Source of the DNA: a phage
Reading direction: 5' to 3' (one strand)
Sequence record: NC_102531.1
DNA length: 64,000 bases
Position numbers and translations under genes: made by a program. The notes under the pieces were generated by a model, which made no database searches, was not told where the DNA came from, and was given only the letters and a program-made list of their open reading frames with translations. Positions 10,768-40,100 of this stretch are shown one piece after another. Positions within the stretch are counted from its first letter, which is position 1. Each line of letters opens with the position of its first letter.

Positions 10768-10941
10768 CTATTTTAAATTATTTTTATGATAGAATCCACC
10801 TGCCGCCCCCGCTAGGTTAACCACCATTTTTTCGTACTCTTCTTTATGTTCCAACGCTCCCGCCATAGCCTTTTCAACCAGGGCGATAGCCTCAGCGTCA
10901 TTAATCGCTACATTCTCCAGGTGAGTAGCATTACCTTTCAT
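10768..10941 (-). CDS. Small protein (57 aa, MKGNATHLENVAINDAEAIALVEKAMAGALEHKEEYEKMVVNLAGAAGGFYHKNNLK)
   Basis: Hand-translated; GAGGAGG Shine-Dalgarno 6 nt upstream. Confidence 0.35.
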   Translation of the reverse strand: MKGNATHLENVAINDAEAIALVEKAMAGALEHKEEYEKMVVNLAGAAGGFYHKNNLK

Positions 10942-11067
10942 TTTTGTACCTCCTCTTCAATTGTTTACCCTACTACCAGGTTTGCAAGCTTTCACCCCCC
11001 TGCCAGGCTGGCCCCGCCAGGTTGCAACGGTTAGCGCATCAGGTTAGAAAAAATTTTTTGAAAAGTG

Positions 11068-11096
11068 TTGACAGCGGCCCCGCCGGGTGGCACAAT
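11068..11096 (+). promoter_or_regulatory. Plus-strand promoter-like unit 1 (-35 TTGACA, AT-rich upstream, weak -10 CACAAT with TG at -15)
   Basis: Perfect -35 hexamer; weak -10; no ORF downstream. Confidence 0.35.
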
Positions 11097-11211
11097 ATAC
11101 CTATCGAAAGGACGGCAGGCACCGGTGACGGGGGAGACAACCACCGGGGATGGGCGCTGCATAAAATGAGAACGGTTATCATTATCATTTAAAAATTTAT
11201 GCAAAAAGTCC

Positions 11212-11242
11212 TTGCTTTCTTTGTCCTGTGTGATACTATAAT
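11212..11242 (+). promoter_or_regulatory. Plus-strand promoter-like unit 2 (-35 TTGCTT, -10 TATAAT)
   Basis: Perfect -10 hexamer at 11237..11242; downstream region shares GGGAGACAA and GAGAAnGnTTATCATT motifs with unit 1. Confidence 0.4.
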
Positions 11243-11358
11243 AACAAGCCGGGGCAACAGGGGCCGGGAGACAATCACCGGGCCTGCCCGTTATTCTGCA
11301 AACGAGAATGATTATCATTCAAAATTCTAAATGAGAACTCCTCGCATTTAATAAATTT

Positions 11359-11374
11359 AATTAGCATGCTAATT
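11359..11374. repeat. 16-bp perfect palindrome AATTAGCATGCTAATT (candidate operator)
   Basis: Self-complementary on inspection. Confidence 0.5.
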
Positions 11375-11523
11375 ACCCTCCGTAACAATTTCCTATAAAA
11401 CAGTATCCCATAAAATATTCCCATATAGAAATTTTAAAAATCCATTTCTGAAAACGAAAAATCGATTTCGTCCCCAAAAATTTCAGGTCGAGATCCGGAA
11501 CGATTTCCAGAAAATCCGGTTCA

Positions 11524-11547
11524 GAAAACGAAAAACAGATCGAGTAC
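11524..11547. repeat. Direct repeat GAAAACGAAAAACAGATCGAGTAC, copy b
   Basis: 22 bp identical to 11591..11612; partial copy at 11450..11466; contains GATC. Confidence 0.6.
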
Positions 11548-11589
11548 TGAGAAATTTATCGAGAAAAATTTTCAGAAAATTCAATCTTT

Positions 11590-11612
11590 GAAACGAAAAA
11601 CAGATCGAGTAC
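11590..11612. repeat. Direct repeat GAAACGAAAAACAGATCGAGTAC, copy c
   Basis: Matches copy b. Confidence 0.6.
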
Positions 11613-11924
11613 CTGGAAAGCTGCACCGCAACTTCAAGATAGTGGTTGGATTATTACCATAAAAGGTCAAGGGTAAGTGGAGGAAGTTCTGGTAGAAGGG
11701 TGTGAGCATGTGCGGGAAATCTGTAATGGTGGTCTGGAATATGGTGCAAACGATAGGATGAGTGGTTCATCTCGCCATGCCTGCTCTGAAAAATCCATTT
11801 TAGTTTTCGATCCATTTTCTGATTTTCTAAGGATTTTAAAATATCCAGCCTGGTGAAATATCAAAAGGAGGAAATCCATTTTAGAAATCCCCCTTACACT
11901 TGATATGCCAGGAATTTTCAAGTA

Positions 11925-13241: not shown

Positions 13242-13309
13242 GGTAAAGTTCTCTCTCTTTGTTGGTTTATGCTTGCATTATACACTACAGTTTTCAGATG
13301 TCAACCTTT

Positions 13310-13480: not shown

Positions 13481-13533
13481 AGTGCTCCCTCTCTCAATTG
13501 TTGTGGTGACTATACCACCTCAAGAGCCAGCTG

Positions 13534-14091
13534 TCAACACTTTTTGTACTCCACCACGATCACATCAATGTCTGTGGTGGCAAGATTAATGACGTCTTCC
13601 ACGTGTTCCCACTTTAGACCACCAATACCGCATCCGATTTTAGGAATGTAGAACGGTAATGACATACCTTTGAATACCTCATTGACTCGCTCAAAGCCTT
13701 TCATGATTGAGAAGTATTCAGCGTTAGGTCCTGGGTAGAACTGAGTATATAGGTTGATTCCATATACAACCTTGTTCTTGGCAAAATGCTCCCAACAAGA
13801 AAACATGCCCAGCTTGTCTAGATTACCATAAGCAGTCTCTTTGTCGGCTGCCAATGCTTGAGGGAACTCACGGGCAATATCTTTCGCTATGCCTGCCCCC
13901 ATTGTGTGAAAGCAGTTACAACCGTGGATCATGTGTCCTGCCCCTTTCTTGAAAAGGGAGATCAGATCCCCCTCTACAGTATCAATAATCACGGTATGCC
14001 AGCTCCTCTTCTGCAATTTCCAAAAACTCATCCCAACACTGTGGCATATTTGAGTTGCCGAAGTGGCTTTCGTAGTAGAGATTTTTACCAC
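13534..14091 (-). CDS. Macrodomain protein, TARG1/OARD1/DarG-like (ADP-ribose binding or hydrolase)
   Basis: GDLISL...HGCNCFHTMGAGIAKDI and IPKIGCGIGGLKWEHV align with the TARG1 motifs GDLF...MGAGIA and MPRIGCGLDRLQWENV as recalled; true start may be an internal Met. Confidence 0.65.
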   Translation of the reverse strand: MVKISTTKATSATQICHSVGMSFWKLQKRSWHTVIIDTVEGDLISLFKKGAGHMIHGCNCFHTMGAGIAKDIAREFPQALAADKETAYGNLDKLGMFSCWEHFAKNKVVYGINLYTQFYPGPNAEYFSIMKGFERVNEVFKGMSLPFYIPKIGCGIGGLKWEHVEDVINLATTDIDVIVVEYKKC

Positions 14092-14407
14092 TTGGAAGGT
14101 AGAAATCTGTTACCTCGTAGAATCCACAATCATCGCACTCACCTTCTTCAAACTTAGCTTTAACTTTAATACCGAGGAAGGTGAAAAGTTTATGGATATC
14201 TTCAGTTTCGAACTCCCAGTGAATGTTGTTTTCCGCATCGGTGTAGAACTGGATCAGCAGACCATTGTCCAGTTTACCAAAATACTCTGTGAAGTAACTT
14301 CCTTCCCAGAAATCTTTATGACAAATAATATCCATGCGTTTGCCCATAATAATGGTGTGAGCGTTTTGGGCATCGTCACGAATCAGTTTTGGCATTTCAT
14401 AGATCAT
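13982..14407 (-). CDS. Hypothetical protein (141 aa)
   Basis: ORF with GGAGAA Shine-Dalgarno; its 3' end overlaps the macrodomain ORF in another frame. Confidence 0.45.
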   Translation of the reverse strand: MIYEMPKLIRDDAQNAHTIIMGKRMDIICHKDFWEGSYFTEYFGKLDNGLLIQFYTDAENNIHWEFETEDIHKLFTFLGIKVKAKFEEGECDDCGFYEVTDFYLPSGKNLYYESHFGNSNMPQCWDEFLEIAEEELAYRDY

Positions 14408-14475: not shown

Positions 14476-14673
14476 TTACACAGGAATTGCTTCAAACAGT
14501 CCGTTATCTATACCGTCCTTCAGATAGAGATTATATTCTATGTCGGTATCTGTATAAAGGGCAGCATCCAGCATTCTATCTGTGAGGCCATTCATTGGGT
14601 GGAGAAACCACCACCCACGCCAGTCAAAGTAACAGCCTGGTGCATCTTCTCTTACACGGATTCGATAAATCAT
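14476..14673 (-). CDS. Hypothetical Trp-rich protein (65 aa)
   Basis: ORF. Confidence 0.4.
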   Translation of the reverse strand: MIYRIRVREDAPGCYFDWRGWWFLHPMNGLTDRMLDAALYTDTDIEYNLYLKDGIDNGLFEAIPV

Positions 14674-14769
14674 GGGCAGTGGCCTCCTGTTAGTTATACA
14701 TCCCAGTTTTCTTCGTTCATCGCGTCCTCCCGTTATATGAAGTTATAATTGCACACCTTTCAACTTGTG

Positions 14770-15186
14770 TCAACAGAAAACTTCAACAAATTCTTCCACA
14801 GTTTTAATGTCGTGGGAAAAAGGTTTACGGCTATAACGGGCAATAGCACTATCAACCACCGCCCGGTACTCCAAATCTTCAGAATATTTCATGAAGCATT
14901 GCAGCGTCTCTGGGCAGATAGCTAAATAGCTCCACCACCCCTCTTCAGATTGGTAGTCGAATCCCATACTCTCCAACCATGAAGCATATACGCCTGCACC
15001 TTCAAGCCAGTGAGTATTTTCATCCAGAAACTTGTTAATAGACATGTGAGCTTCTAAGCATTTATCCAGCTCTTTTCCGTTAACCAGCCATGCACTAACT
15101 GTGGCGCATCCGAGGTCTACAGATTGAGTTGACAGGTTGTATTGGTCATAGTTCTCAGGTTTAACAATGATATCTTCTAATGTCAT
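14770..15186 (-). CDS. Hypothetical protein (138 aa)
   Basis: ORF with AAGGAG Shine-Dalgarno; follows a terminator. Confidence 0.5.
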   Translation of the reverse strand: MTLEDIIVKPENYDQYNLSTQSVDLGCATVSAWLVNGKELDKCLEAHMSINKFLDENTHWLEGAGVYASWLESMGFDYQSEEGWWSYLAICPETLQCFMKYSEDLEYRAVVDSAIARYSRKPFSHDIKTVEEFVEVFC

Positions 15187-15202: not shown

Positions 15203-15233
15203 TACAAAAATGCCCCACCCTTTCGGGCAGGGC
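15203..15233 (-). terminator. Intrinsic terminator with GAAA tetraloop (GCCCTGCCC gaaa GGGTGGGGC, then ATTTTTG)
   Basis: 9-bp stem with T-run; the 22-nt hairpin sequence recurs exactly at 25334..25355. Confidence 0.65.
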
Positions 15234-19311: not shown

Positions 19312-19682
19312 TGATCGGTCTCCTTCTTGTTAAGTCTGAATACTGCAATAATAGCATTCCCAAGGTGCAGTGTCAAATCATTTCCAAGATACCACAACAT
19401 TCCACGGTCATCTTTGATGAAAGGGTAACAATCTGGTGCCTTCCAGACATTGTACACTTTCCCGACCTGAAAGAAATCAGGACCTGTTGGGATTTTAGTG
19501 CCAGGCCACACTTGAGATACCTGAACACACTCTACCTGCATAATAACAGGGATAGTCATGGATGTAAATGTTTTTGTTGGTTCTACTACCATAAAAGTCT
19601 CCTCTTTGCTCAACAACACTTCCATGTGTTGATAGTTTACATTAGTGACAATCACCCCAATTACGACCACACAAGTATTCAC
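19308..19682 (-). CDS. Hypothetical protein (124 aa)
   Basis: ORF. Confidence 0.45.
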   Translation of the reverse strand: MNTCVVVIGVIVTNVNYQHMEVLLSKEETFMVVEPTKTFTSMTIPVIMQVECVQVSQVWPGTKIPTGPDFFQVGKVYNVWKAPDCYPFIKDDRGMLWYLGNDLTLHLGNAIIAVFRLNKKETDQ

Positions 19683-22419
19683 CTGTGATCTGGAACGGGA
19701 CTCCCATCATTTTAGAAGCTTGCCAGAAGCAATGCACCACCATTTCACCTACAGGGCTCCAGATAAGTTCAAGCTTTCCGTCATCGTTCAGGATAGGATC
19801 GTACACCGTGTTTCCGTCTCTGTCAACCACTTCGTTTCCGTCCTCATCCTTGCGTGCCTTTTTGTGCTTATGACCGTCGAACACATGAAGTTTGGCCTCC
19901 TGCTCTGCCTTAAATGCTTCCAGTTCTTCAATTGTGTCGAAGGTGTACACAGTCTTATACTTCGGTGTGTCAGGCACTTGAAGCTGATATTCGTCATGGT
20001 AATAGATAATACGACGGACACCTTCATCGTACCACCCACGCTTCACCATTTGGTGGTGCATGAGTATCCCAACCAAGTCACACAACGATGCACCACCATT
20101 TTGTTGGTATGCATTAAGCAAAGAGTGTTTAGAGCGAGTCCAGATGGCATGACCATCAAAAGAGTAGATAAATTTCTTACCTGTTGCTTCCCAGAATTTC
20201 TCCAAGTCCTCTTTACGCCCTTTAAGACCGGGGTTGGCATCCCAAAGCGCATCGATCACCCTTTGTCCCAACTCTGGAGAGATATCCAGCATGTCTGCAA
20301 CTTTATCTTTTTGTGCCCCATACATAACCCCATACGTGATAGGTTTACCGTCGTTACGAGACACCTCTCTGCCTGCTACTTTCGTATATGCCTCAGCATT
20401 GTTTTGGTGTGCGTCCCCGTTACTTACAACATCATAATACAAGCCGTTGTCGAACTCAAAGGCACCCCAAGCCCCGATAAGCTGCTCTAAGTTGGACCCG
20501 TCAATACCGATCTCAAAGTATCCTGGAGGAACACCCCACAGACTACGCATCTCTTTACCCATAACCACTTTAGGAGATGGTTTAGGCATGTTTGCACAAA
20601 TACTGTGTTTCTGTCTGGAAGTGTTTGTTAATCCAGAGCTTTTAGCAGGAAGCTTATGGTCAATCTTCAAACGTGGGTGATTAAGAAGACCAGTATCAAC
20701 CTTATCCTCCTTAATTGGATCAAGGACCGATCTGCGGTTTCGCAATGATAACCACAAGACGATATCTTTAGCCATCTCTCCGTTCAATTTTTCAAGATTC
20801 GGACATAGGTGTCCAAACGTATCTTTCAGTTGCGGAGAAGTAATAAGTGCCCTGGCTTTTCTACGTATTTTCCCGAATACTTCCTTTTTAATCCTCTCGG
20901 AGTTAGGAAAGCTTCGGAACTTGTGCACGGTTGTCTGGAACTTAGCATCAGTTTTGTTCCAGAAGTTGATAATCAGGTCACAATACTCTGACTCTAAAAG
21001 CTCGTCCATATATGCATATACTCGTGCATCAACATCTGCATCAGGTAGAGCTTTCTTCTTGCTGTCTTTAGTTACATCCTTAGTTCTCCACATTGTCGGA
21101 AGCCAACCAGCACTGATCAGGTATCGCTTAATATCGTCCTGATTGCTGATTTTCATAGGTATCTTGCAGTCAGGCATTCGCTTCTGCTGCAGATCGCTTA
21201 TTGCCTGATCCATCAGCTCTTTAGGTAAAGGTTGTGGTGTGGAGGTGCCCTTAATATAACCTCTCAAGAAATCAGCCATCTTGTCTGGGTCTTTGCAGCC
21301 CATCTCTTCACACCATTTTATCCCCATTTTACTGACATCTCCTGTGGAGGTAAATGCTCGCTTAGGTGGGGCTTTGAACTCTAAAGCGCTCATGTCTACA
21401 GGATAACCAAGCTTATCTTTTAACCATTTCCAACCATTATTGGAGATTGTCCCATCTTGGTTAAACGGCTTTTCAGGGAACTTGGGCCGCTGAGACATTG
21501 ACAGCTCTTTTAAAGGTAGTTGTGGTTCAACACGATCAGCTATTTCTTTCATCCACGCATCGCAACGGTCACGTAAAGCAATAGCCCCGTCTATGTCGAA
21601 ATACACACCCTGACGGGCCTGCAGCTCCATCAGGAAGTGCTGCAGCATGCCTCGGCGTAATGCGTTCTTCCAGGTGATCTTCTTGAACCCTTTTGGCTTC
21701 TCTTTGGCAGGATCGTACATAAAGTTCTGCATGTCAGATTTGCCGTAGAATACACCTTTTGATTCCGCTACCAGCTCTTTCCAGAGCAGCTCCTGGATGA
21801 TAACGTCCTCGAATACACGATCCACATACTTCCACAGCGGAAGATCGCGCCAGTCATCAATTTGAACTTTCTGGTTACCAAGAGCGTAGCCCCATGCCAT
21901 AAGGCCGTGAGGACCAACAGGCTGCATTTTCTTAGTAACCGGGTTGAATACAGAGTCCGGACAACCTTTTGGTAAAGGGCGATCAGGCCACAAGATTCGG
22001 CTCATCGCCAACGTATCGAACAGGTTAACCTGGTGGTCGTTGATAGTCCCCATACATTTAGGATCACGGAACATATCAAAATGAATACCGGATAATCTCT
22101 CCATCAGCATAAAGTCATAACTGTAGCAGTTATGGCAGTTCAAAGCTGTTGGTGACCAGTCGGAATTTCCTGTAAGCCAACCTTCCAACTCCGAAAAATC
22201 TGCTATGCGAACTTCAAAATCTTTATAAAGAGTTTTCTTTGCCAGAATAAAGTTCTTAGCCTTCTCTATATCCTCCTCGGAGTAGTGTGTGCGGTCATTT
22301 AGAGGAAGGAACAGCATAAAACGGTTCTTATTCAGCTCTTTAAACAGGCCGCAATGATAATAAAGATCTGGGTCTTCCAGCAAACCGGATGACTCAAAAT
22401 CGAACGACCACATGCTCAT
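19642..22419 (-). CDS. DNA polymerase, family A, T7 gp5-like, with N-terminal 3'-5' exonuclease
   Basis: FDFE exonuclease motif, motif B (KPITYGVMYGAQ), motif C (YYHDEYQ); N- and C-termini (ending NWGDCH) resemble T7 gp5 as recalled; AAGGAGA Shine-Dalgarno. Confidence 0.9.
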   Translation of the reverse strand: MSMWSFDFESSGLLEDPDLYYHCGLFKELNKNRFMLFLPLNDRTHYSEEDIEKAKNFILAKKTLYKDFEVRIADFSELEGWLTGNSDWSPTALNCHNCYSYDFMLMERLSGIHFDMFRDPKCMGTINDHQVNLFDTLAMSRILWPDRPLPKGCPDSVFNPVTKKMQPVGPHGLMAWGYALGNQKVQIDDWRDLPLWKYVDRVFEDVIIQELLWKELVAESKGVFYGKSDMQNFMYDPAKEKPKGFKKITWKNALRRGMLQHFLMELQARQGVYFDIDGAIALRDRCDAWMKEIADRVEPQLPLKELSMSQRPKFPEKPFNQDGTISNNGWKWLKDKLGYPVDMSALEFKAPPKRAFTSTGDVSKMGIKWCEEMGCKDPDKMADFLRGYIKGTSTPQPLPKELMDQAISDLQQKRMPDCKIPMKISNQDDIKRYLISAGWLPTMWRTKDVTKDSKKKALPDADVDARVYAYMDELLESEYCDLIINFWNKTDAKFQTTVHKFRSFPNSERIKKEVFGKIRRKARALITSPQLKDTFGHLCPNLEKLNGEMAKDIVLWLSLRNRRSVLDPIKEDKVDTGLLNHPRLKIDHKLPAKSSGLTNTSRQKHSICANMPKPSPKVVMGKEMRSLWGVPPGYFEIGIDGSNLEQLIGAWGAFEFDNGLYYDVVSNGDAHQNNAEAYTKVAGREVSRNDGKPITYGVMYGAQKDKVADMLDISPELGQRVIDALWDANPGLKGRKEDLEKFWEATGKKFIYSFDGHAIWTRSKHSLLNAYQQNGGASLCDLVGILMHHQMVKRGWYDEGVRRIIYYHDEYQLQVPDTPKYKTVYTFDTIEELEAFKAEQEAKLHVFDGHKHKKARKDEDGNEVVDRDGNTVYDPILNDDGKLELIWSPVGEMVVHCFWQASKMMGVPFQITGEYLCGRNWGDCH

Positions 22420-22477: not shown

Positions 22478-24556
22478 TTAAAAAGGCGTTTCATCGTCCT
22501 CAAAACCAGGAATCTGGTCAGAGGATGGATCATCGTACTGGAGGTCTTCCTGCGTGTCAACAGGCTTAACAGTAGGAGTTACAACCTTATCAGCCACAAC
22601 CTTGCCCATAGGTGTTTCTACAACTGCATGCTCCTGATCCTCAAACATGGCCTGAGGTCTCCAAACAACCTCCCCACCTTCTCCGTCTGTAAACATTTGC
22701 ATTTCTTTGTCCCAGTACCAATTACTGGCATCATGGAACTTACCTGTGTGCGGGTCCATAACTAGAGTGTCAGCAATACCTAAAGTTTTTGCTGGACGGT
22801 TTTTAAGACCTACCAGACGGACACGCCCACGAGAACGATCCACCATTTCTTCGGCCTCGACACCTATGACTACCCAACTCAACTGTTCAAGCCCAGCCGA
22901 TCCTCGCAAATTCTCTTTTCGCACAGGATACCAGAAAGGTAACGGGTTACCATCCTTGTCCTTAGGAGGCACAATCTCTGTACGTTTGAGGTGAGCAATC
23001 ACTAAGATAAACACGTTAAACTGCTTACAAAACGCAGCCAGTTGGGTCATAGCCATGTCCAGTTCTTTTCGCTCATCCTTAACATTAAGACCTGAAATTA
23101 CCATGGACAGGTGATCCAGTACAATATAACGACAATGGTACAGGCAAACCATTTGCTTAAGCTTAGTAATCAACTCGTCCACCGGAATAGATCCGAAATG
23201 TTTGAACACTTTGATTTTTCCAGCTTTTGCCCATGATTGGTGAATCTCTGCGTGTTCTTGATCAGTTAAAAACTGGCTAGGGTCTTCAACAAACTCTTTA
23301 ACATCAAACCCTAACTGGTTTGCATACAAGGAGTTAATTGCTTCCTCTGGGTCCTCCTCAAGATGGATCATGCATAGACGATCATCCTCTTCGTAGTCAT
23401 CGGCCTTCGGACATGTCGGGTCCATTAGGTATCTTGCAATACAGTGTTCCAGTTTTTTAGCTACGGTTGTTTTACCGCCACCTGACGGACCTGTAAGCAT
23501 TACGAGTGTCCCTTTGTGCAAGCCTTTTAGCATTTTTTGCAGTTTTGGGAACTCTGCGCTGATATCTACCCCGTTGGAAGTCTTTTTCCGCAAAGACTCG
23601 ATAGAGAAGTCTTCTAAATCCGACACAGCATCAGGCACATATTTAACAGGGTGCCGAAACATGTTGACAATATCTTCTAGCTTTTTAGCCTTCAGCATGT
23701 CACGGATATCTTTTACACCGTCAGGATCGTTTACCTCACCGGGATATTCTACGTGGTAAACGTTATCAGCCATCAAAAATGCTGCGATATTGTGAGTGGC
23801 CTCAACACCTTTAATGACGTGTTTTTGCTTTTCTACCTCGTTAGCTGCATCGTTATCCATTGCCAGCACAACTGTTCCATAGCTACGGATAAACTTCTCA
23901 TTGTTTGCAAAAGTATCTACTGCGTTTGCACATCCACAGTTAATTCCAACAAAAGGTAGGCAGGGTTTTCCTGCCAGATCACCACCGTTGATAACTGCAT
24001 CGATCCCGTCCTGGACCTCTTTAGCCCACTGCTTGACCTTTGCCGGGGCTTTAGCGTTGGTGAGAATCCCTTTTACCTGTATCTGATATGCAGCTTGCCA
24101 TGCTGCAATAACATCTCCTTCCCCCTCACAGACGTTAATCTGCTTGCGGTTGTTAGAGGATGCACACAGCTTTTGACCAAACATCTGAGAGTTAGCCTTT
24201 ACTATGCCTACTACAGACCAGTGTCCTTTCTGCTCTTTCGGCTTAGACCAATCACGTTTTTTGAAACCAGACAGATTCCCGTAGCGGTCGTAATATGGGA
24301 AATATGTTGCAGTAACTGTCACACCGTCTTCTTGGGACAATGCTGATCGCACACCAAAATATTGTGCAGCCATCAGACCGATATTTTGTTGTGGGACAGG
24401 GACAATTTTAGTATTTTCTAAAACAGTCTCTACAGTTTCAACTTCTTTTTCATCACGATAGTCTCGTTTCACACTTCCCCCACTTTTATACTTAGTTGCT
24501 TTCGGGTTTGGCTCACCGAAACGGTTGTATGCAGATGCCATAAATTTACTTCCCAT
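22478..24556 (-). CDS. Primase-helicase (DnaB-type helicase domain), T7 gp4-like
   Basis: Walker A LTGPSGGGKTT, Walker B-like DHLSM; N-terminal primase-like region; adjacent to the polymerase. Confidence 0.8.
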   Translation of the reverse strand: MGSKFMASAYNRFGEPNPKATKYKSGGSVKRDYRDEKEVETVETVLENTKIVPVPQQNIGLMAAQYFGVRSALSQEDGVTVTATYFPYYDRYGNLSGFKKRDWSKPKEQKGHWSVVGIVKANSQMFGQKLCASSNNRKQINVCEGEGDVIAAWQAAYQIQVKGILTNAKAPAKVKQWAKEVQDGIDAVINGGDLAGKPCLPFVGINCGCANAVDTFANNEKFIRSYGTVVLAMDNDAANEVEKQKHVIKGVEATHNIAAFLMADNVYHVEYPGEVNDPDGVKDIRDMLKAKKLEDIVNMFRHPVKYVPDAVSDLEDFSIESLRKKTSNGVDISAEFPKLQKMLKGLHKGTLVMLTGPSGGGKTTVAKKLEHCIARYLMDPTCPKADDYEEDDRLCMIHLEEDPEEAINSLYANQLGFDVKEFVEDPSQFLTDQEHAEIHQSWAKAGKIKVFKHFGSIPVDELITKLKQMVCLYHCRYIVLDHLSMVISGLNVKDERKELDMAMTQLAAFCKQFNVFILVIAHLKRTEIVPPKDKDGNPLPFWYPVRKENLRGSAGLEQLSWVVIGVEAEEMVDRSRGRVRLVGLKNRPAKTLGIADTLVMDPHTGKFHDASNWYWDKEMQMFTDGEGGEVVWRPQAMFEDQEHAVVETPMGKVVADKVVTPTVKPVDTQEDLQYDDPSSDQIPGFEDDETPF

Positions 24557-25340
24557 TAATTCTGCTCCTTACTGCAGGCTCGTTTGCTAAGAATACAGCT
24601 TTTGCCCAGCCACGGGGTGTGAGGCTTCGAATCATCTTTGTTCTTGCACTCTTTCCCCCCAGCTTGGCGTGTTGCATGGAATACCCGCTAACCGCGTCAA
24701 CTATTTGCGGGACAGGTTTTGTGGCCGGGATTATAAATCCATTACCTATCCAGCCGCAAGTTATTTTTGGATAGGCATCACGTGGAGCTATAAATTCAGG
24801 AAACCAGGGGTTTACATCATCCTCCGGTAAATACCCGCCATAATCAGAAGGGTGAAAACGGTAATCAGGTTTGCGCCACAGCGTGGACATAACACCCACA
24901 GGATTCTCTACATGCCACGGGCAATCGTAAATCTCTCCCAACTCTTCTGCAACCCGAGCATCCTTTACAGCGTTAATCTGGATCAGCGGGTCCTTAGCCA
25001 GCTTCTTCTTAAAGTGTGCAGCACCTGACACCGCTAAGTGGGTGCACGGAGGAAATGCAAGAACAAAGTCCGGAGCTGGGTACATGCAGAAAGTTTCCTG
25101 AGGGAACCATGGATCAATCCAATAATCTACATAGTGAATATTTGGATGATCGGTGATCACCTCTGCATAACTGCCGTGGTCAGCACCTTCTGCGTTAAAG
25201 CACAGGCACAGATATCCAGCTTTTGCCCAGTCAATGACTGCACCGCCAGATCCGTCAAACAGACTCCACACAACACCTTTGTGGTAGTGTTCTTTATAGA
25301 TAAATTTCAATTTGCTGTCTCCTAATGCAAAAAGCCCCAC
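24546..25340 (-). CDS. Compact C5-cytosine methyltransferase-like protein (264 aa) with variant catalytic motif
   Basis: Motif I SLFDGSGG, motif IV FPPCTHLAVSG (PCT instead of PCQ), motif VI HVENPVG; too short for a normal target-recognition domain. Confidence 0.5.
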   Translation of the reverse strand: MGLFALGDSKLKFIYKEHYHKGVVWSLFDGSGGAVIDWAKAGYLCLCFNAEGADHGSYAEVITDHPNIHYVDYWIDPWFPQETFCMYPAPDFVLAFPPCTHLAVSGAAHFKKKLAKDPLIQINAVKDARVAEELGEIYDCPWHVENPVGVMSTLWRKPDYRFHPSDYGGYLPEDDVNPWFPEFIAPRDAYPKITCGWIGNGFIIPATKPVPQIVDAVSGYSMQHAKLGGKSARTKMIRSLTPRGWAKAVFLANEPAVRSRINGK

Positions 25341-26255: not shown

Positions 26256-26599
26256 CAGAAACCTCCCACTTCTTCAGCAAATGCAGCTGCTGTCGTCGCT
26301 GCATCCAGATAGGACTCCAGTTCACGGGCTGCACGTTTGTAAATTGAGTGTCGCAAATCGTTTGGCAGTTGGTGGAAGTCCACCTCTTCACCGTTGTGGT
26401 AAACATGCACATCGGTAATTTGTCTAAATCCGTAATAGTCAACATCAGAATCACGGCACTCCGGGTCTGGCAACTGGACAACTGCCTGAGCTTCTACAGT
26501 AAACATATCGTCAAGTTCGAAATCGATTTCAAAAGTGTATGGTTTATAACGTTTCATCATTTGATTGTACTCTTTATTGATCAGACATATCTTTCGCAA
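26255..26599 (-). CDS. Hypothetical protein (114 aa)
   Basis: ORF. Confidence 0.5.
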   Translation of the reverse strand: MRKICLINKEYNQMMKRYKPYTFEIDFELDDMFTVEAQAVVQLPDPECRDSDVDYYGFRQITDVHVYHNGEEVDFHQLPNDLRHSIYKRAARELESYLDAATTAAAFAEEVGGF

Positions 26600-27899
26600 T
26601 TAAGGCCGGGGTAAGTTTGTAATAACGGAAGCCACCACCACCTTGCCAGTTTACAGACTTGGAAATACCACCTTGATCTTCGCCATCGATCACTTTTTCC
26701 AAGCGCGGAATAATATGGGTATGACAATGATCACCCAGTTCGATCAAGATCCAACGTCTTTTCATTTTGTGAGCTACAGCAGCAGTAGTTCCCGAACCAC
26801 CGAATGAATCCAATACCAAATCGCCTTCTCGCGTACACATTTCGAAAATCCGCTTCAAAAGCGCTTCTGGTTTTTTCCCATTTTTGAAACTAACGCCACC
26901 TTCATTTGCTATTCCATTCCAACTAATATCTGTCCAAACATCAGTTATTAGTTCCGCAGGCTGCATCTCACCGTCAATTTCCAAAAGCCTATTGGAGTAA
27001 AAGACCATTTGCCTACCATTTGCGATATAAAATCCTTCAACATCCTCATTTGGATGTACATAAACCTTATCCTTATCTTTCTTTGACTTCTCGATAGTTT
27101 CTTTTCTCTTTATTTTAGCACCACCACCAATTGCAACAGATTGAAATACACGTTCTGCATTATCAATTGCGAATTGTGCTAATTCATCATCGAATGTGTC
27201 AGGCAGTTTTTTCTTGGCTTCTTTTGCATCTTTATAGCCATTGGCCTTTGCAAACGCATCGGCAATACCGCACCACGTCCAATTTTTATAATGGTCATCC
27301 GGGTTTAATAGGTATTTGTTATATCCTGTATCATACCCTTTAGGTATATAGATTTTGTTAAGCGGTTTCTGGGTGCGATCTTTTGCATATACAAGCAAAA
27401 AGTTTGCTGTGGAGAAAACTGTGGCTCCTGTTGCCTTAAATCCCGAAGGGGAATTTGTGGTCATCGATATGGTAGTTAACTGATTTGCACGACCAAAAAT
27501 CTCGTCCATCAAAACTTTTAAATACGCCATTTCGCAATCATCTAAGTGAACGAATATTACCCCATCATCACTTAGAAGATTACGAATTATTTCTAACCTA
27601 TCCCTCATTAAGCCCAGCCAAATGGAATGCTCAAGGCTATCATCGTAGTGCTCAAAAGCCCTTCCAGTATTGAATGGTGGGTCTATGTAAACACACTTCA
27701 CTTTGCCTGCATACTCTTGCTCTAGCGCCTTCAATGCTAATAAGTTATCTCCAAAAATCAGTTTATTATCAAAAATATCGTTTTCGGTCACTTTCTGGCT
27801 GTGGTAAGACTTGCTAGAATCTTCTAACAAAATGTGCGGCTCTAACTTTTTGCGCTCGTTTTTACCTATCCAGGTTAGTTCTAATTTGGTTTTACTCAT
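26574..27899 (-). CDS. DNA methyltransferase, Mod-like, probably N6-adenine; no partner endonuclease recognised
   Basis: LIFGDNLLALKAL then VYIDPPFNTG (motif IV) and C-terminal SFGGSGTTAAVA (motif I), i.e. beta-class order. Confidence 0.8.
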   Translation of the reverse strand: MSKTKLELTWIGKNERKKLEPHILLEDSSKSYHSQKVTENDIFDNKLIFGDNLLALKALEQEYAGKVKCVYIDPPFNTGRAFEHYDDSLEHSIWLGLMRDRLEIIRNLLSDDGVIFVHLDDCEMAYLKVLMDEIFGRANQLTTISMTTNSPSGFKATGATVFSTANFLLVYAKDRTQKPLNKIYIPKGYDTGYNKYLLNPDDHYKNWTWCGIADAFAKANGYKDAKEAKKKLPDTFDDELAQFAIDNAERVFQSVAIGGGAKIKRKETIEKSKKDKDKVYVHPNEDVEGFYIANGRQMVFYSNRLLEIDGEMQPAELITDVWTDISWNGIANEGGVSFKNGKKPEALLKRIFEMCTREGDLVLDSFGGSGTTAAVAHKMKRRWILIELGDHCHTHIIPRLEKVIDGEDQGGISKSVNWQGGGGFRYYKLTPALIAKDMSDQ

Positions 27900-33412: not shown

Positions 33413-33841
33413 TTAATCGTAGTGTGCCAAAATCTCTCCATCGTTGCAAGTTCCCTCTACAAAGTTATGAAGATTCATGCACTCATCTTGATAGAAGAAT
33501 TTACCGCTTTTCAGCCGTAGGCCAAACAACTCCGCATCTCCACGATGGCAAGCCTCTACAAGTTCATAGATTTCATACGGCAACTCTCCGTCGTCATGGA
33601 AGAATCCAGCCTTATCGTTGACATAAATGAAGAAATAATCACTGCTATCGCAAGCATCCAATATTTTAAACCAGATTTCATCTACATCTTTTTCTCGGAT
33701 ATCGATCACGCAAGTGGAGCTGCATTCGTACTCCTTCTCCGGCTCCTCGGTCAATACCACCAGGTAGTTTCCCCGCTTACCTACTTTAGCCATACAACCC
33801 CCCTTAAGCTTTAGCCAAAATGGCGCTAAACTCTTCACCAA
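33413..33841 (-). CDS. Hypothetical Cys-containing protein (142 aa)
   Basis: ORF. Confidence 0.45.
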   Translation of the reverse strand: MVKSLAPFWLKLKGGCMAKVGKRGNYLVVLTEEPEKEYECSSTCVIDIREKDVDEIWFKILDACDSSDYFFIYVNDKAGFFHDDGELPYEIYELVEACHRGDAELFGLRLKSGKFFYQDECMNLHNFVEGTCNDGEILAHYD

Positions 33842-34988
33842 ACTCTTTTACAATCTTCATCAGGTTTGGGTATGCTTTGATCAGCTGAGCAACAATCTTG
33901 TCACGCCCTTTACCGATAAGCAAGGCATTTCCTAAGGCATTAGGTTTCATCATCGCCATAAAGACTGAGAATACAAAATCTCGGTTCTCGTCCTTGAAGT
34001 TTTCCCAAAGGAAATCGAGGAAGTTTGCCACGCAGCTGACAAGATCTTCGTCTGAGATACTTGCATTTTCCATCATATTACGAATAGCGATACAACCTTC
34101 AGATCCAAGAATCCACAAAATGTCTGGCTGCTTAGGACCTACGTATTCTTTGCAGCCACCTGCCATAATCCGACCGATTTCCGGTAAATTGCGTTTCTTG
34201 GTGTGGTATGTCCAGATCTCTACCGCTGCAGTGTGACCAATAGCACCTTGCAGAAGAATACGGGACATAGCGTCAGAAATAATACCGCTGTCAAAATCGT
34301 GCAAGATGTCAGATGCAGCAACCCAAGATCGTGGTGTGGCAAAAGATGGACAATTAATCTCAGCCATAGCCTCATAATTATCAATAGCTGATGGAACTCT
34401 TTTCAGATACCCAATTACAGAGGAGTGAACCCCGTTGAGGAATGCGTAGTCCTCAATAAACACCTCTGCATTGCTTGTAACCTCTACAATGATAAAGCGG
34501 TTAGCCAGAGGGGCTTCGAGCGCCGAAAGAACCGCACCATCTGTAGAACGGTTACCCGCAGCCACAAAAACAGAACCCTTAGGGAATGCATAGGTGCCGC
34601 ACTTGTGGTCAAGCATAATTTGCATTGCAACCTTTTGCAGGTAGTTATCTGCATGAGTGAGCTCATCCAGAAAGATAATTCCGCTCCAGTCAGGATCCGC
34701 AGGCCAAAATTCTGGAATTGCAAACACTGTACGTGTAGTTCCATCCGCTTCTACAGGGATAGGTAGCCCAGATAAGTCGGCAGGATCTTTATCTGACAGT
34801 CGCACGTCAACAAGGTTGTCATCTCGCTCACCGAACATATTATCAGCGATCTGCTTCATCACCTGGCTTTTACCCACACCCATTGGTCCCAAAATTAGGA
34901 CAGATCGGCTATGACGTTGGGCAAACTGAATAATAGCTGGCAACTCACGGACAGTGATTTGACCACTTTCGAATACGTTTCTTGACAT
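33804..34988 (-). CDS. AAA+ ATPase, MoxR/CbbQ/CobS-like
   Basis: Walker A GPMGVGKS, Walker B IIFLDELTHA, AAA_5-like layout. Confidence 0.7.
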   Translation of the reverse strand: MSRNVFESGQITVRELPAIIQFAQRHSRSVLILGPMGVGKSQVMKQIADNMFGERDDNLVDVRLSDKDPADLSGLPIPVEADGTTRTVFAIPEFWPADPDWSGIIFLDELTHADNYLQKVAMQIMLDHKCGTYAFPKGSVFVAAGNRSTDGAVLSALEAPLANRFIIVEVTSNAEVFIEDYAFLNGVHSSVIGYLKRVPSAIDNYEAMAEINCPSFATPRSWVAASDILHDFDSGIISDAMSRILLQGAIGHTAAVEIWTYHTKKRNLPEIGRIMAGGCKEYVGPKQPDILWILGSEGCIAIRNMMENASISDEDLVSCVANFLDFLWENFKDENRDFVFSVFMAMMKPNALGNALLIGKGRDKIVAQLIKAYPNLMKIVKEFGEEFSAILAKA

Positions 34989-38606: not shown

Positions 38607-38639
38607 TAACAGGGGCCAATGGCCCCTTCTGGAGTTTTA

Positions 38640-40100
38640 ATGGATAGCAGAAGTTCAGAAATCATTGCCTCGCAGAAAGATGATGCCCTGAGAATGTTGC
38701 AGGCTGCACGTATGTATCTCCTTGAAAAGCTGCCGTTCTATGGCACACTACTGTCAGGGTTGCAGTTCGTAGAAAACCACACATGGTGCTCCACCATGGC
38801 AACCGACCATAAACGCATCTATTACAGTCCTGAGTTCATTATGGGATTGGCTGATGAACGCAAGGCTATTCTTAAGGCTTCTCTAACTGACGAGCAGTTT
38901 GAGATGGCTGAAGTTTTCTATTCCCCAAAATCTGTGAAAGAGGTGGCCTTCCTTCTGTCACATGAGGTGGGGCATATTATCTGTGATCACCTAGTCCGTG
39001 GTAAAAGCTTTGAGCCGGAACTGTTCAATATTGCTTGTGATCACGTTATCAACACAGGCCTTGTGGTTGACTTTAGCAAACCTCCTTGTGTTTTCTTCCC
39101 GAAGGGGAAAAGCACTACGTTCGTGAAAGGTAAGCCTTTTGGCTTCTTAGCCAGCTGCTACTGCGACATGAAGTTTCATGGATGGATTGCTGAGAACGTT
39201 TATGCAGTTCTTGATAAGCAAAGAGATCAGAATAACGGTAAAAGTAAGAACGGTAAAGGTGAGAACTCTCAAAGTGATAAGCGACAAACCGATGATCACA
39301 TGAGTGGGAACGGTGGCACCAATGATAATCTTGGAAAGGCTATGGGGTATGATCAGCCACAACCTGTAATCAGCCAATCTGATAAAGATCAGGCCATGCA
39401 GGACTCTGGTGATATGCTGGAGGCAGCAATGCAAGCGTCCGGAGGCCGTTGCCCTGAGGCGGTGCGTGAGTTTGTCAAGAACAGAGGTAAACCTGTAATC
39501 AACTATATAGACATCATTAAGCAACGCATGTTGTCTAAAAGAAAGGCCGAACTGACCTACAGAAAACCTGGTCGCCGATCTGGGTCTTTGACCAGCACAA
39601 TGCGAAAAGTTGGGGCTATAAACAAGAACCAGCACGTTATTGTTCCTGGTCGTAATCCGGAAAACACTATAGATATTGTGGTGGCTTTAGACGTTTCTGG
39701 CTCGATCTCTCAAAGAACTTTAAAGAAAATGTTCAATGAAATCACCGGATTGTGCAATCTGTATAAAGAGTTTAAGGTTACAATGTTCTGTTGGTCAACT
39801 GAGGTTGGAGAGGTTAAAGTATACACTCGCGGCAACATAGACGAGATGATCAACTATGAGGTCCACTCAACATGGGGCACAACAGCTGCTTGCGTGTTCG
39901 AGTATCTGGATGCCAACATACCTAATGCAAAAGATGTCATCGTCCTGACCGACCTATACTTTGAGCATAACTTTGAACAAAAGGTTGTTGACAACAAGTG
40001 GAAAAAGTACGATACTCTATGGGTCCTCACTGAGGGGTATAATAAAAATTATATCCCGAGCTTTGGGAAAACTGTGGAATTAATCGAGTACGCTAAGTAA
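38640..40100 (+). CDS. vWA-domain protein with N-terminal HExxH metallopeptidase-like motif (CobT-like partner of the MoxR ATPase)
   Basis: LSHEVGHIICDH (HExxH) and MIDAS-like VVALDVSGS; start placed at the ATG after GGAG rather than the ATG inside hairpin 38611..38627. Confidence 0.65.
   Translation: MDSRSSEIIASQKDDALRMLQAARMYLLEKLPFYGTLLSGLQFVENHTWCSTMATDHKRIYYSPEFIMGLADERKAILKASLTDEQFEMAEVFYSPKSVKEVAFLLSHEVGHIICDHLVRGKSFEPELFNIACDHVINTGLVVDFSKPPCVFFPKGKSTTFVKGKPFGFLASCYCDMKFHGWIAENVYAVLDKQRDQNNGKSKNGKGENSQSDKRQTDDHMSGNGGTNDNLGKAMGYDQPQPVISQSDKDQAMQDSGDMLEAAMQASGGRCPEAVREFVKNRGKPVINYIDIIKQRMLSKRKAELTYRKPGRRSGSLTSTMRKVGAINKNQHVIVPGRNPENTIDIVVALDVSGSISQRTLKKMFNEITGLCNLYKEFKVTMFCWSTEVGEVKVYTRGNIDEMINYEVHSTWGTTAACVFEYLDANIPNAKDVIVLTDLYFEHNFEQKVVDNKWKKYDTLWVLTEGYNKNYIPSFGKTVELIEYAK

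Follow-up and report, generated by a model that had tools for sequence, protein, structure and literature searches.

What does a phage use a stand-alone macrodomain for, and could such a protein shield phage DNA from an ADP-ribosylating host defence? The question is raised by a minus-strand reading frame in the window (the whole 64,000-nucleotide stretch of phage DNA analysed here), which a preliminary description, made from the letters alone, had read as a TARG1/DarG-like macrodomain and a candidate for reversing host ADP-ribosylation of phage DNA or proteins, such as that by DarT-type toxins. The phage belongs to the genus Vequintavirus and is a myophage of E. coli resembling rV5: the 3 kb around the gene matches 119 phage records, mostly at 90–95% identity. 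Sixteen GenBank records named ‘Campylobacter phage’ (MG065654, MG065658, MG065659, MG065661, MG065662, MG065666 and others) are 93–95% identical to the Vequintavirus region; the host labels are probably in error, or else contaminating E. coli was the source of the phages.

The reading frame originally placed at 13534–14091 does exist on the minus strand, but its extent must be revised. The 185-aa version, 13534..14091 with a GTG at 14091, is a mechanical open reading frame whose 5′ end is too long, as homologues and annotated relatives begin at the GTG at 13992, which is preceded by GAGGAG. The macrodomain gene, of the T4 Tk.4/AdfM type, is 13534..13992 (minus strand; 459 nt, 152 aa), as assigned from its GTG start, ribosome-binding site, annotated relatives and homologue alignment. 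Its start region (13990..14008, minus) comprises GAGGAG at 14008–14003, a 10-nt spacer and GTG at 13992–13990. From this start 43 homologues can be aligned, most of them beginning with ‘MI’, and the identical 459-nt CDS is annotated in the relatives Murica (gp091), BP9 and O157 typing phage 14. The GTG start overlaps the TGA stop (13984–13982) of a neighbouring 141-aa ORF, and the Murica annotation has the same overlap with the upstream stop. Because the true CDS starts at 13992, the overlap amounts to 11 nt (GTGATTATTGA) and not to about 110 nt. Both motif blocks that had been quoted for the reading frame are present on the minus strand: EGDL occupies residues 7–10 of the 152-aa protein and is accompanied by HGCNCFHTMGAGIA, and the PKIGCGIGGLKWEHV block runs from 13644 downwards.

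Two checks proposed at the outset, a profile search and a structure prediction, were carried out, and both agree with a macrodomain of the TARG1/DarG-like class. The Pfam Macro profile (PF01661) matches the 152-aa protein over profile positions 1–117 of 118 with 26.7 bits (E 5.6e-6), above the gathering cut-off of 22 bits, and PHROG 335 is its best PHROG (E 2.5e-60). The PADLOC model of DarG matches at 6.9e-13 in its macrodomain part only; similarly, the NCBIfam DarG model NF048014 matches (E 2.4e-12, 46.8 bits against an equivalog cut-off of 250 bits) only at model positions 3–143 of 338, again the macrodomain part. Sequence comparison with the PDB, using HMMER, gave the same leading set whether the query was the single protein or a profile of 44 family sequences, with SCO6735 (2.6e-14), the M. 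tuberculosis DarG macrodomain (3.3e-14), BT1257, TARG1 (7e-13), Poa1p and T. aquaticus DarG foremost among the profile matches. In this profile search, members of the ALC1-like class range from 2.6e-14 to 1e-9, with macrodomains of the coronavirus nsp3 type at about 4e-3.

An AlphaFold2 model built from the family alignment has a pLDDT of 93.8 and a pTM of 0.89. When the model was compared with solved structures by Foldseek, TARG1, Poa1p, DarG (TM 0.75–0.77), BT1257 and SCO6735 led with TM scores of 0.70–0.77, and the top 16 matches all belonged to the ALC1-like class; TARG1 (PDB 4J5S) was the first of them, at E 1.5e-9. By sequence and predicted fold, then, the 152-aa protein is a member of the ALC1-like macrodomain class, which includes TARG1, DarG, SCO6735 and Poa1p. 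The best viral structural match of the model is tk.4 of Acinetobacter phage 133 (TM 0.88). A match in BFVD, A0A481YV05, is a Marseillevirus ‘SNF2 subfamily protein’ whose macrodomain is 40% identical to the 152-aa protein (TM 0.92); here a giant virus combines SNF2 with a macrodomain, as in ALC1.

If the protein worked through the same catalytic residues as TARG1, a conserved Lys/Asp pair would be expected, and this part of the preliminary description does not hold: the pair is absent, and Gln84 and Gly124 stand in its place. Alignments and conservation point to three elements of the active site, all on the minus strand: the putative ADP-ribose-binding loop HGCNCFHTMGAGIA (13885..13926), which includes Asn26 (13917–13915); the NLYTQ motif (13741..13755), which includes Gln84 (13743–13741); and PKIGCGIGG (13618..13644), the putative glycine-rich diphosphate-binding loop, which includes Gly124. 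Among 249 proteins, namely the macrodomain and the homologues that two database searches returned, Asn26 never varies (249/249) and Gln84 hardly does (247/249), and the position aligned with TARG1 Asp125 is Gly or Ala in 248. DarG Lys80 (in a PTK motif) and TARG1 Lys84 (in an ITK motif) fall opposite Gln84 whether the alignment is made by HMMER or, with reference sequences, by MAFFT.

Gln84 and Asn26 align instead with Gln85 and Asn27 of SCO6735, a protein that lacks both of the TARG1 catalytic residues and has Gln85 at the Lys position, held by Asn27 (PMC9411070). Mutation of this glutamine (Q85A) abolishes all activity, and Asn27 is also needed (PMC9411070). SCO6735 nevertheless releases ADP-ribose linked to thymidine in DNA that DarT has modified, and it shields cells against DarT (PMC9411070). 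Because this cleavage is carried out by an enzyme with the same Gln, and one that depends on it, the missing Lys/Asp dyad does not refute a de-ADP-ribosylating function for the phage protein. The extended mobile loop of SCO6735 is missing from the 152-aa protein, which has a gap of 5–6 residues opposite ‘MKTGSKG’.

Membership of this class does not by itself specify a substrate, since Poa1p, which is also a member, is an ADP-ribose-1''-phosphate phosphatase, and the family retains a Poa1p-like His23; both points count against a role on DNA. The protein could accordingly be a metabolic enzyme, either a phosphatase like Poa1p or an O-acetyl-ADP-ribose deacetylase. Such a role is what many GenBank labels and the PHROG label name (‘phosphatase’ or ‘O-acetyl-ADP-ribose deacetylase’); Poa1p also ranks among the best matches in both sequence and fold, and 243 of the 249 proteins retain the residue that aligns with Poa1p His23. 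However, these labels are inherited from the generic domain name ‘A1pp’ and not from assays. Moreover, the position of Poa1p Ser30 is Thr30 in the 152-aa protein and variable across the family, and that of Phe152 is Gly or Ala (the three Poa1p residues were picked from deposited mutants, and their roles are known from PDB entry titles only). The scanned part of the 64-kb window yielded no producer of ADP-ribose-1''-phosphate, and the phenotype of the T4 homologue is specific to defence. A metabolic role therefore seems improbable to us.

The T4 homologue in question is Tk.4, which shows 39% identity and 67% similarity to the 152-aa protein over 150 of the latter's 152 residues (E 3e-43); the GenBank record of rV5 already calls the gene ‘Tk.4 conserved hypothetical protein’. 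A protein 67.5% identical to the Vequintavirus one is encoded at the canonical vs–tk.4–tk locus of the RB49-like phage Krischvirus kvi. PHROG 335 is the best family not only for the 152-aa protein but also for T4 Tk.4 and for gp104 of PhiKZ, although identity to the latter is only 22% (E 6e-5). The family is widespread: tblastn detected a match to the macrodomain in 2835 of 50,697 phage records, and 4708 representatives of clusters at 50% identity match the family at E values up to 1e-3. For the Vequintavirus protein, fold, class, conserved residues and homology to T4 Tk.4 are thus established.

Two recent studies bear on what members of this family do. When a T4 transposon library was screened on a host carrying DarTG2, tk.4 was the single significant hit (HIDEN-SEQ preprint, Nov 2025, bioRxiv 10.1101/2025.11.20.689424). 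A clean knockout of tk.4 sensitised T4 to DarTG2, which is genetic evidence from a preprint, and the gene was renamed adfM, for anti-DarT factor macrodomain (bioRxiv 10.1101/2025.11.20.689424). PhiKZ gp104 was independently named AdfM (2026 Cell Reports, PMC13309987). It strips DarT2-made ADP-ribose off a TNTC oligonucleotide in vitro, relieves the toxicity of DarT2 and is required for growth on DarTG2 hosts, and it needs a conserved active-site Asn, as judged from an N23A construct (PMC13309987).

Homology to T4 Tk.4 and PhiKZ gp104 supports the original proposal that the protein reverses DarT-type ADP-ribosylation of phage DNA, and we infer that it acts against DarT as T4 tk.4, SCO6735 and PhiKZ gp104 do. 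We consider it likely that the 152-aa protein is a stand-alone ADP-ribosylglycohydrolase of the T4 Tk.4/AdfM family, which erases from phage DNA the ADP-ribose attached by DarT2. Under this model, the macrodomain would be made early in infection from host-type promoters, as judged from promoter-like sequences, and would remove ADP-ribose from those thymidines of single-stranded phage DNA that host DarT2, the toxin of the DarTG2 toxin–antitoxin defence, had modified, so that replication and packaging of the phage genome could be restored. In a site of the SCO6735 type, Asn26 would position Gln84, which in turn would position the distal ribose, and hydrolysis would proceed by an activated water, a mechanism unlike that of DarG and TARG1, which use Lys or Lys/Asp.

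Counting against this reading is the modest identity to T4 Tk.4, at only 39%, and the class is known to be promiscuous, in that the substrates of TARG1 and SCO6735 include ADP-ribose linked to protein (PMC9411070). The macrodomain might thus erase ADP-ribose from proteins or RNA, placed there by other host defences or by phage transferases, rather than from DNA. This explanation draws on the fact that TARG1 and SCO6735 are the closest solved relatives, on the presence of two ADP-ribosyltransferases, ModA and ModB, in T4, which itself bears Tk.4, and on the occurrence of the family in 2835 phage records, possibly wider than pressure from DarTG2 alone would explain. Yet tk.4 was the sole significant T4 hit on DarTG2, and we regard erasure from proteins or RNA in place of DNA as unlikely, if somewhat less so than a metabolic role.

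One version of this explanation, that the macrodomain regulates ADP-ribosylation by the phage's own transferases, is not favoured, as ModB matches come mainly from T4-sized genomes and apparently from no Vequintavirus. A tblastn search with ModB matched 1016 records, and a spread sample of 30 of them contained only phages of about 160–290 kb, except for one 1.5-kb fragment of T4. Nor do the organism counts of these matches, from a search that covered ModB-type enzymes, include the 16 Vequintavirus records that bear the name ‘Campylobacter phage’. Judging from the organism counts, the source phage probably has no Mod-type enzyme to regulate; and because no ModA/ModB-type transferase was detected in Vequintavirus records by this indirect count, a role in regulating the phage's own ADP-ribosylation is less likely there.

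The history of the gene within Vequintavirus offers a further view of how it is constrained. When 13534–13992 was compared with its counterpart in O157 typing phage 14 (L005, 2501–2959), nucleotide identity was 80%, with a dS of 0.88 and a dN/dS of 0.13, as against 92–98.5% identity and a dS of 0.06–0.44 for seven of the eight flanking genes compared between the same two phages. In tblastn matches the gene falls into two allele groups, about 43 records at 90–99% identity and 75 at 80–90%. The protein of the BASEL phage Bas59 EduardKellenberger, also a Vequintavirus, is 96% identical to that of the window, and the allele of O157 typing phage 14 is roughly 83% identical. Because dN/dS relative to the divergent allele is 0.13, the macrodomain gene is under purifying selection. 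This ratio, together with the dS of 0.88, rules out positive selection as the source of the divergent allele, which looks like an old allele exchanged by recombination.

The existence of two deeply diverged alleles in Vequintavirus is pertinent to another explanation, namely, that the macrodomain neutralises DarT mainly by binding the toxin stoichiometrically and not by catalysis: co-evolution with a protein target could give such a pattern. Binding of this sort has a precedent, in that the catalytically dead Q85A form of SCO6735 still strongly inhibits DarT in vitro, more so than DarG K80A or TARG1 K84A (PMC9411070). On the other hand, the strict conservation of the catalytic Asn and Gln and of the glycine loops across 249 proteins, combined with the dN/dS of 0.13, indicates a conserved enzyme, and the protein has no counterpart of the C-terminal domain by which DarG binds DarT. 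An inhibitor acting mainly by binding is, in our estimation, very unlikely, and the least probable of the explanations considered here. A broader and speculative possibility, to which we give limited credence but more than to any of these alternatives, is that AdfM of the T4/rV5 type forms a mechanistically distinct phage clade, relying on Gln and water, that may also block DarT by binding or erase ADP-ribose from proteins or RNA, the diverged Vequintavirus alleles reflecting different host toxins. If such added activities exist, a single small gene would suffice against several defences that act by ADP-ribosylation.

The surroundings of the gene were also taken to be informative, the preliminary description having placed it in a replication module and having suggested that the adjacent 141-aa ORF might share its function. 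The first of these is true only loosely. The macrodomain gene lies 5.65 kb downstream of the DNA polymerase gene (19642–22419, same strand), in a block of small genes without known function. The DNA polymerase, primase–helicase, two DNA methyltransferases, a Dda-like helicase and rIIA/rIIB are found upstream of the macrodomain gene, likewise on its strand, between 19.6 kb and 32.9 kb. The two DNA methyltransferase genes (24546–25340 and 26574–27899, minus), which sit in this replication block beside the primase–helicase, may serve anti-restriction functions. Elsewhere in the window are a DUF2201 metallopeptidase/VWA-like protein (38619–40100, plus) and a separate ATPase, phrog_1297 (33804–34988, minus). 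A MoxR ATPase of the Vequintavirus Bas54, possibly the same gene, is reported to be an anti-defence factor against ‘DS-28’ (HIDEN-SEQ, bioRxiv 10.1101/2025.11.20.689424). Pfam or PHROG scans of about 20 larger ORFs of the window revealed no other ADP-ribose-related gene, although a NADAR protein encoded by a small ORF could have escaped notice.

Of the claim about the 141-aa ORF (13982..14407, minus; assigned to phrog_8157 by PHROG search), the overlap stands, at 11 nt only, and the ORF is probably translationally coupled to the macrodomain gene; a common function is unsupported, as the two genes are unlinked in other phages. Conserved linkage was rejected on two grounds: the 141-aa ORF occurs in 176 phage records as against 2835 for the macrodomain, and in Krischvirus kvi its homologue and the macrodomain gene are about 8 kb apart. 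Members of phrog_8157 occur only in Vequintavirus and in RB49-like Krischvirus phages, at about 36% identity, and their conserved cysteines include C29 and the C91/C94 pair of a CDDC motif. Neither a fold relative nor a PADLOC or Pfam match was detected for the 141-aa ORF.

Candidate transcription signals, all on the minus strand and all from a consensus scan only, surround this pair of genes. A sigma70-like match (10/12) at 14530..14558, 5′ of the 141-aa ORF, is a candidate promoter for the pair; a second (10/12, with the TG of an extended −10) lies at 14745..14773, 5′ of a 65-aa ORF; and an intrinsic-terminator-like hairpin at 15212..15233, after a 404-aa gene, divides the small-gene block from the upstream genes. 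Together, the promoter matches and the hairpin suggest a separate early transcription unit that includes the macrodomain gene. Immediately 3′ of the macrodomain gene, the minus strand has two near-perfect sigma70 consensus promoters, at 13277–13304 (12/12) and 13509–13537 (11/12, extended −10), of which the second begins inside the macrodomain stop codon. These downstream sequences point to a string of small, separately promoted early genes.

Further along, an ORF-poor interval of about 1.1 kb (10850–11920), in which relatives annotate only tiny CDSs, contains three direct repeats of 62–74 nt (11419–11480, 11493–11554 and 11558–11619) that are 61–74% identical and share the core GAAAACGAAAAA. 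GC-rich 17-mers recur in the interval as well, GGGAGACAAYCACCGGG at 11132 and 11266 and GGCCCCGCCRGGTKGCA at 11010 and 11076. The interval has no Rfam or tRNA match, and such scans returned nothing for the window as a whole.

That a phage macrodomain can counter DarTG2 is a published concept, and the gene family is already annotated in rV5-like genomes. What is modestly new is that, according to the alignments, the T4/rV5 clade has a Gln-type active site resembling that of SCO6735, unlike DarG and the AdfM of PhiKZ. The proposed function predicts natural protection from defences of the DarTG2 type for rV5-like phages, a group employed in cocktails for phage therapy and biocontrol.

How the protein compares with known systems depends on the feature considered. 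Human TARG1/OARD1, its top Foldseek match, has the (M/I)P(R/K)IGCG...L.WE.V block in common with it, but the Lys84/Asp125 dyad of TARG1 is replaced by Gln84 and Gly124, and Ser26 by Asn26. DarG (DarG2; PDB 5M3I and 5M31) resembles it in fold and class (TM 0.75–0.77, profile E 3e-14) and in presumed substrate, whereas the phage protein lacks the C-terminal DarT-binding domain, has Gln for Lys80 and scores 46.8 bits against the cut-off of 250. No darT lies beside the macrodomain gene, whose neighbours are ORFs of 56–141 aa belonging to unknown PHROGs. SCO6735 (PDB 5E3B) and Bacteroides BT1257 (2FG1), the best PDB sequence and profile matches, share with the phage protein an active site of Asn and Gln with no Lys/Asp dyad. 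They differ in being cellular proteins, in having IGQH where the phage protein has YTQF, and in a mobile loop that is 5–6 residues longer, the extension, with Lys89 and Lys94 implicated in DNA binding, being missing in the phage protein.

Among phage-encoded countermeasures, AdfN (found in T4, T5-like and some Vequintavirinae phages) is likewise an orphan, antitoxin-like eraser in a lytic phage that undoes DNA ADP-ribosylation by DarT (PMC11825919). It has, however, the unrelated NADAR fold and is specific to guanosine-linked ADP-ribose: these NADAR enzymes counter DarTG1 and are inactive against DarTG2 (PMC11825919). PhiKZ gp104, by contrast, is itself a DarG-like macrodomain that stands alone; its best PHROG is also 335, and it counters DarTG2 by de-ADP-ribosylation of DNA. 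It departs from the Vequintavirus protein, to which it is 22% identical, in having the DarG-type Lys (FPTKDNW) in place of Gln, and in being imported into the phage nucleus, a structure that Vequintaviruses are not known to build. T4 Tk.4 is also a stand-alone macrodomain of about 150 aa, and shares with the Vequintavirus protein HGCNCFHTMG(A/S)G, NLYTQF, P(K/R)IG(C/A)GIG and the Gln that replaces the catalytic Lys. Its gene lies between vs and tk in T-even phages, as opposed to after the 141-aa ORF in a small-gene block of the rV5 type, and T4 is the one of the two in which the anti-DarTG2 phenotype was demonstrated. At the sequence level, therefore, the two phage lineages that bear the name AdfM differ in active site, with Gln in T4 and rV5 and Lys in PhiKZ, a split that matters both for studies of mechanism and for the design of inhibitors.
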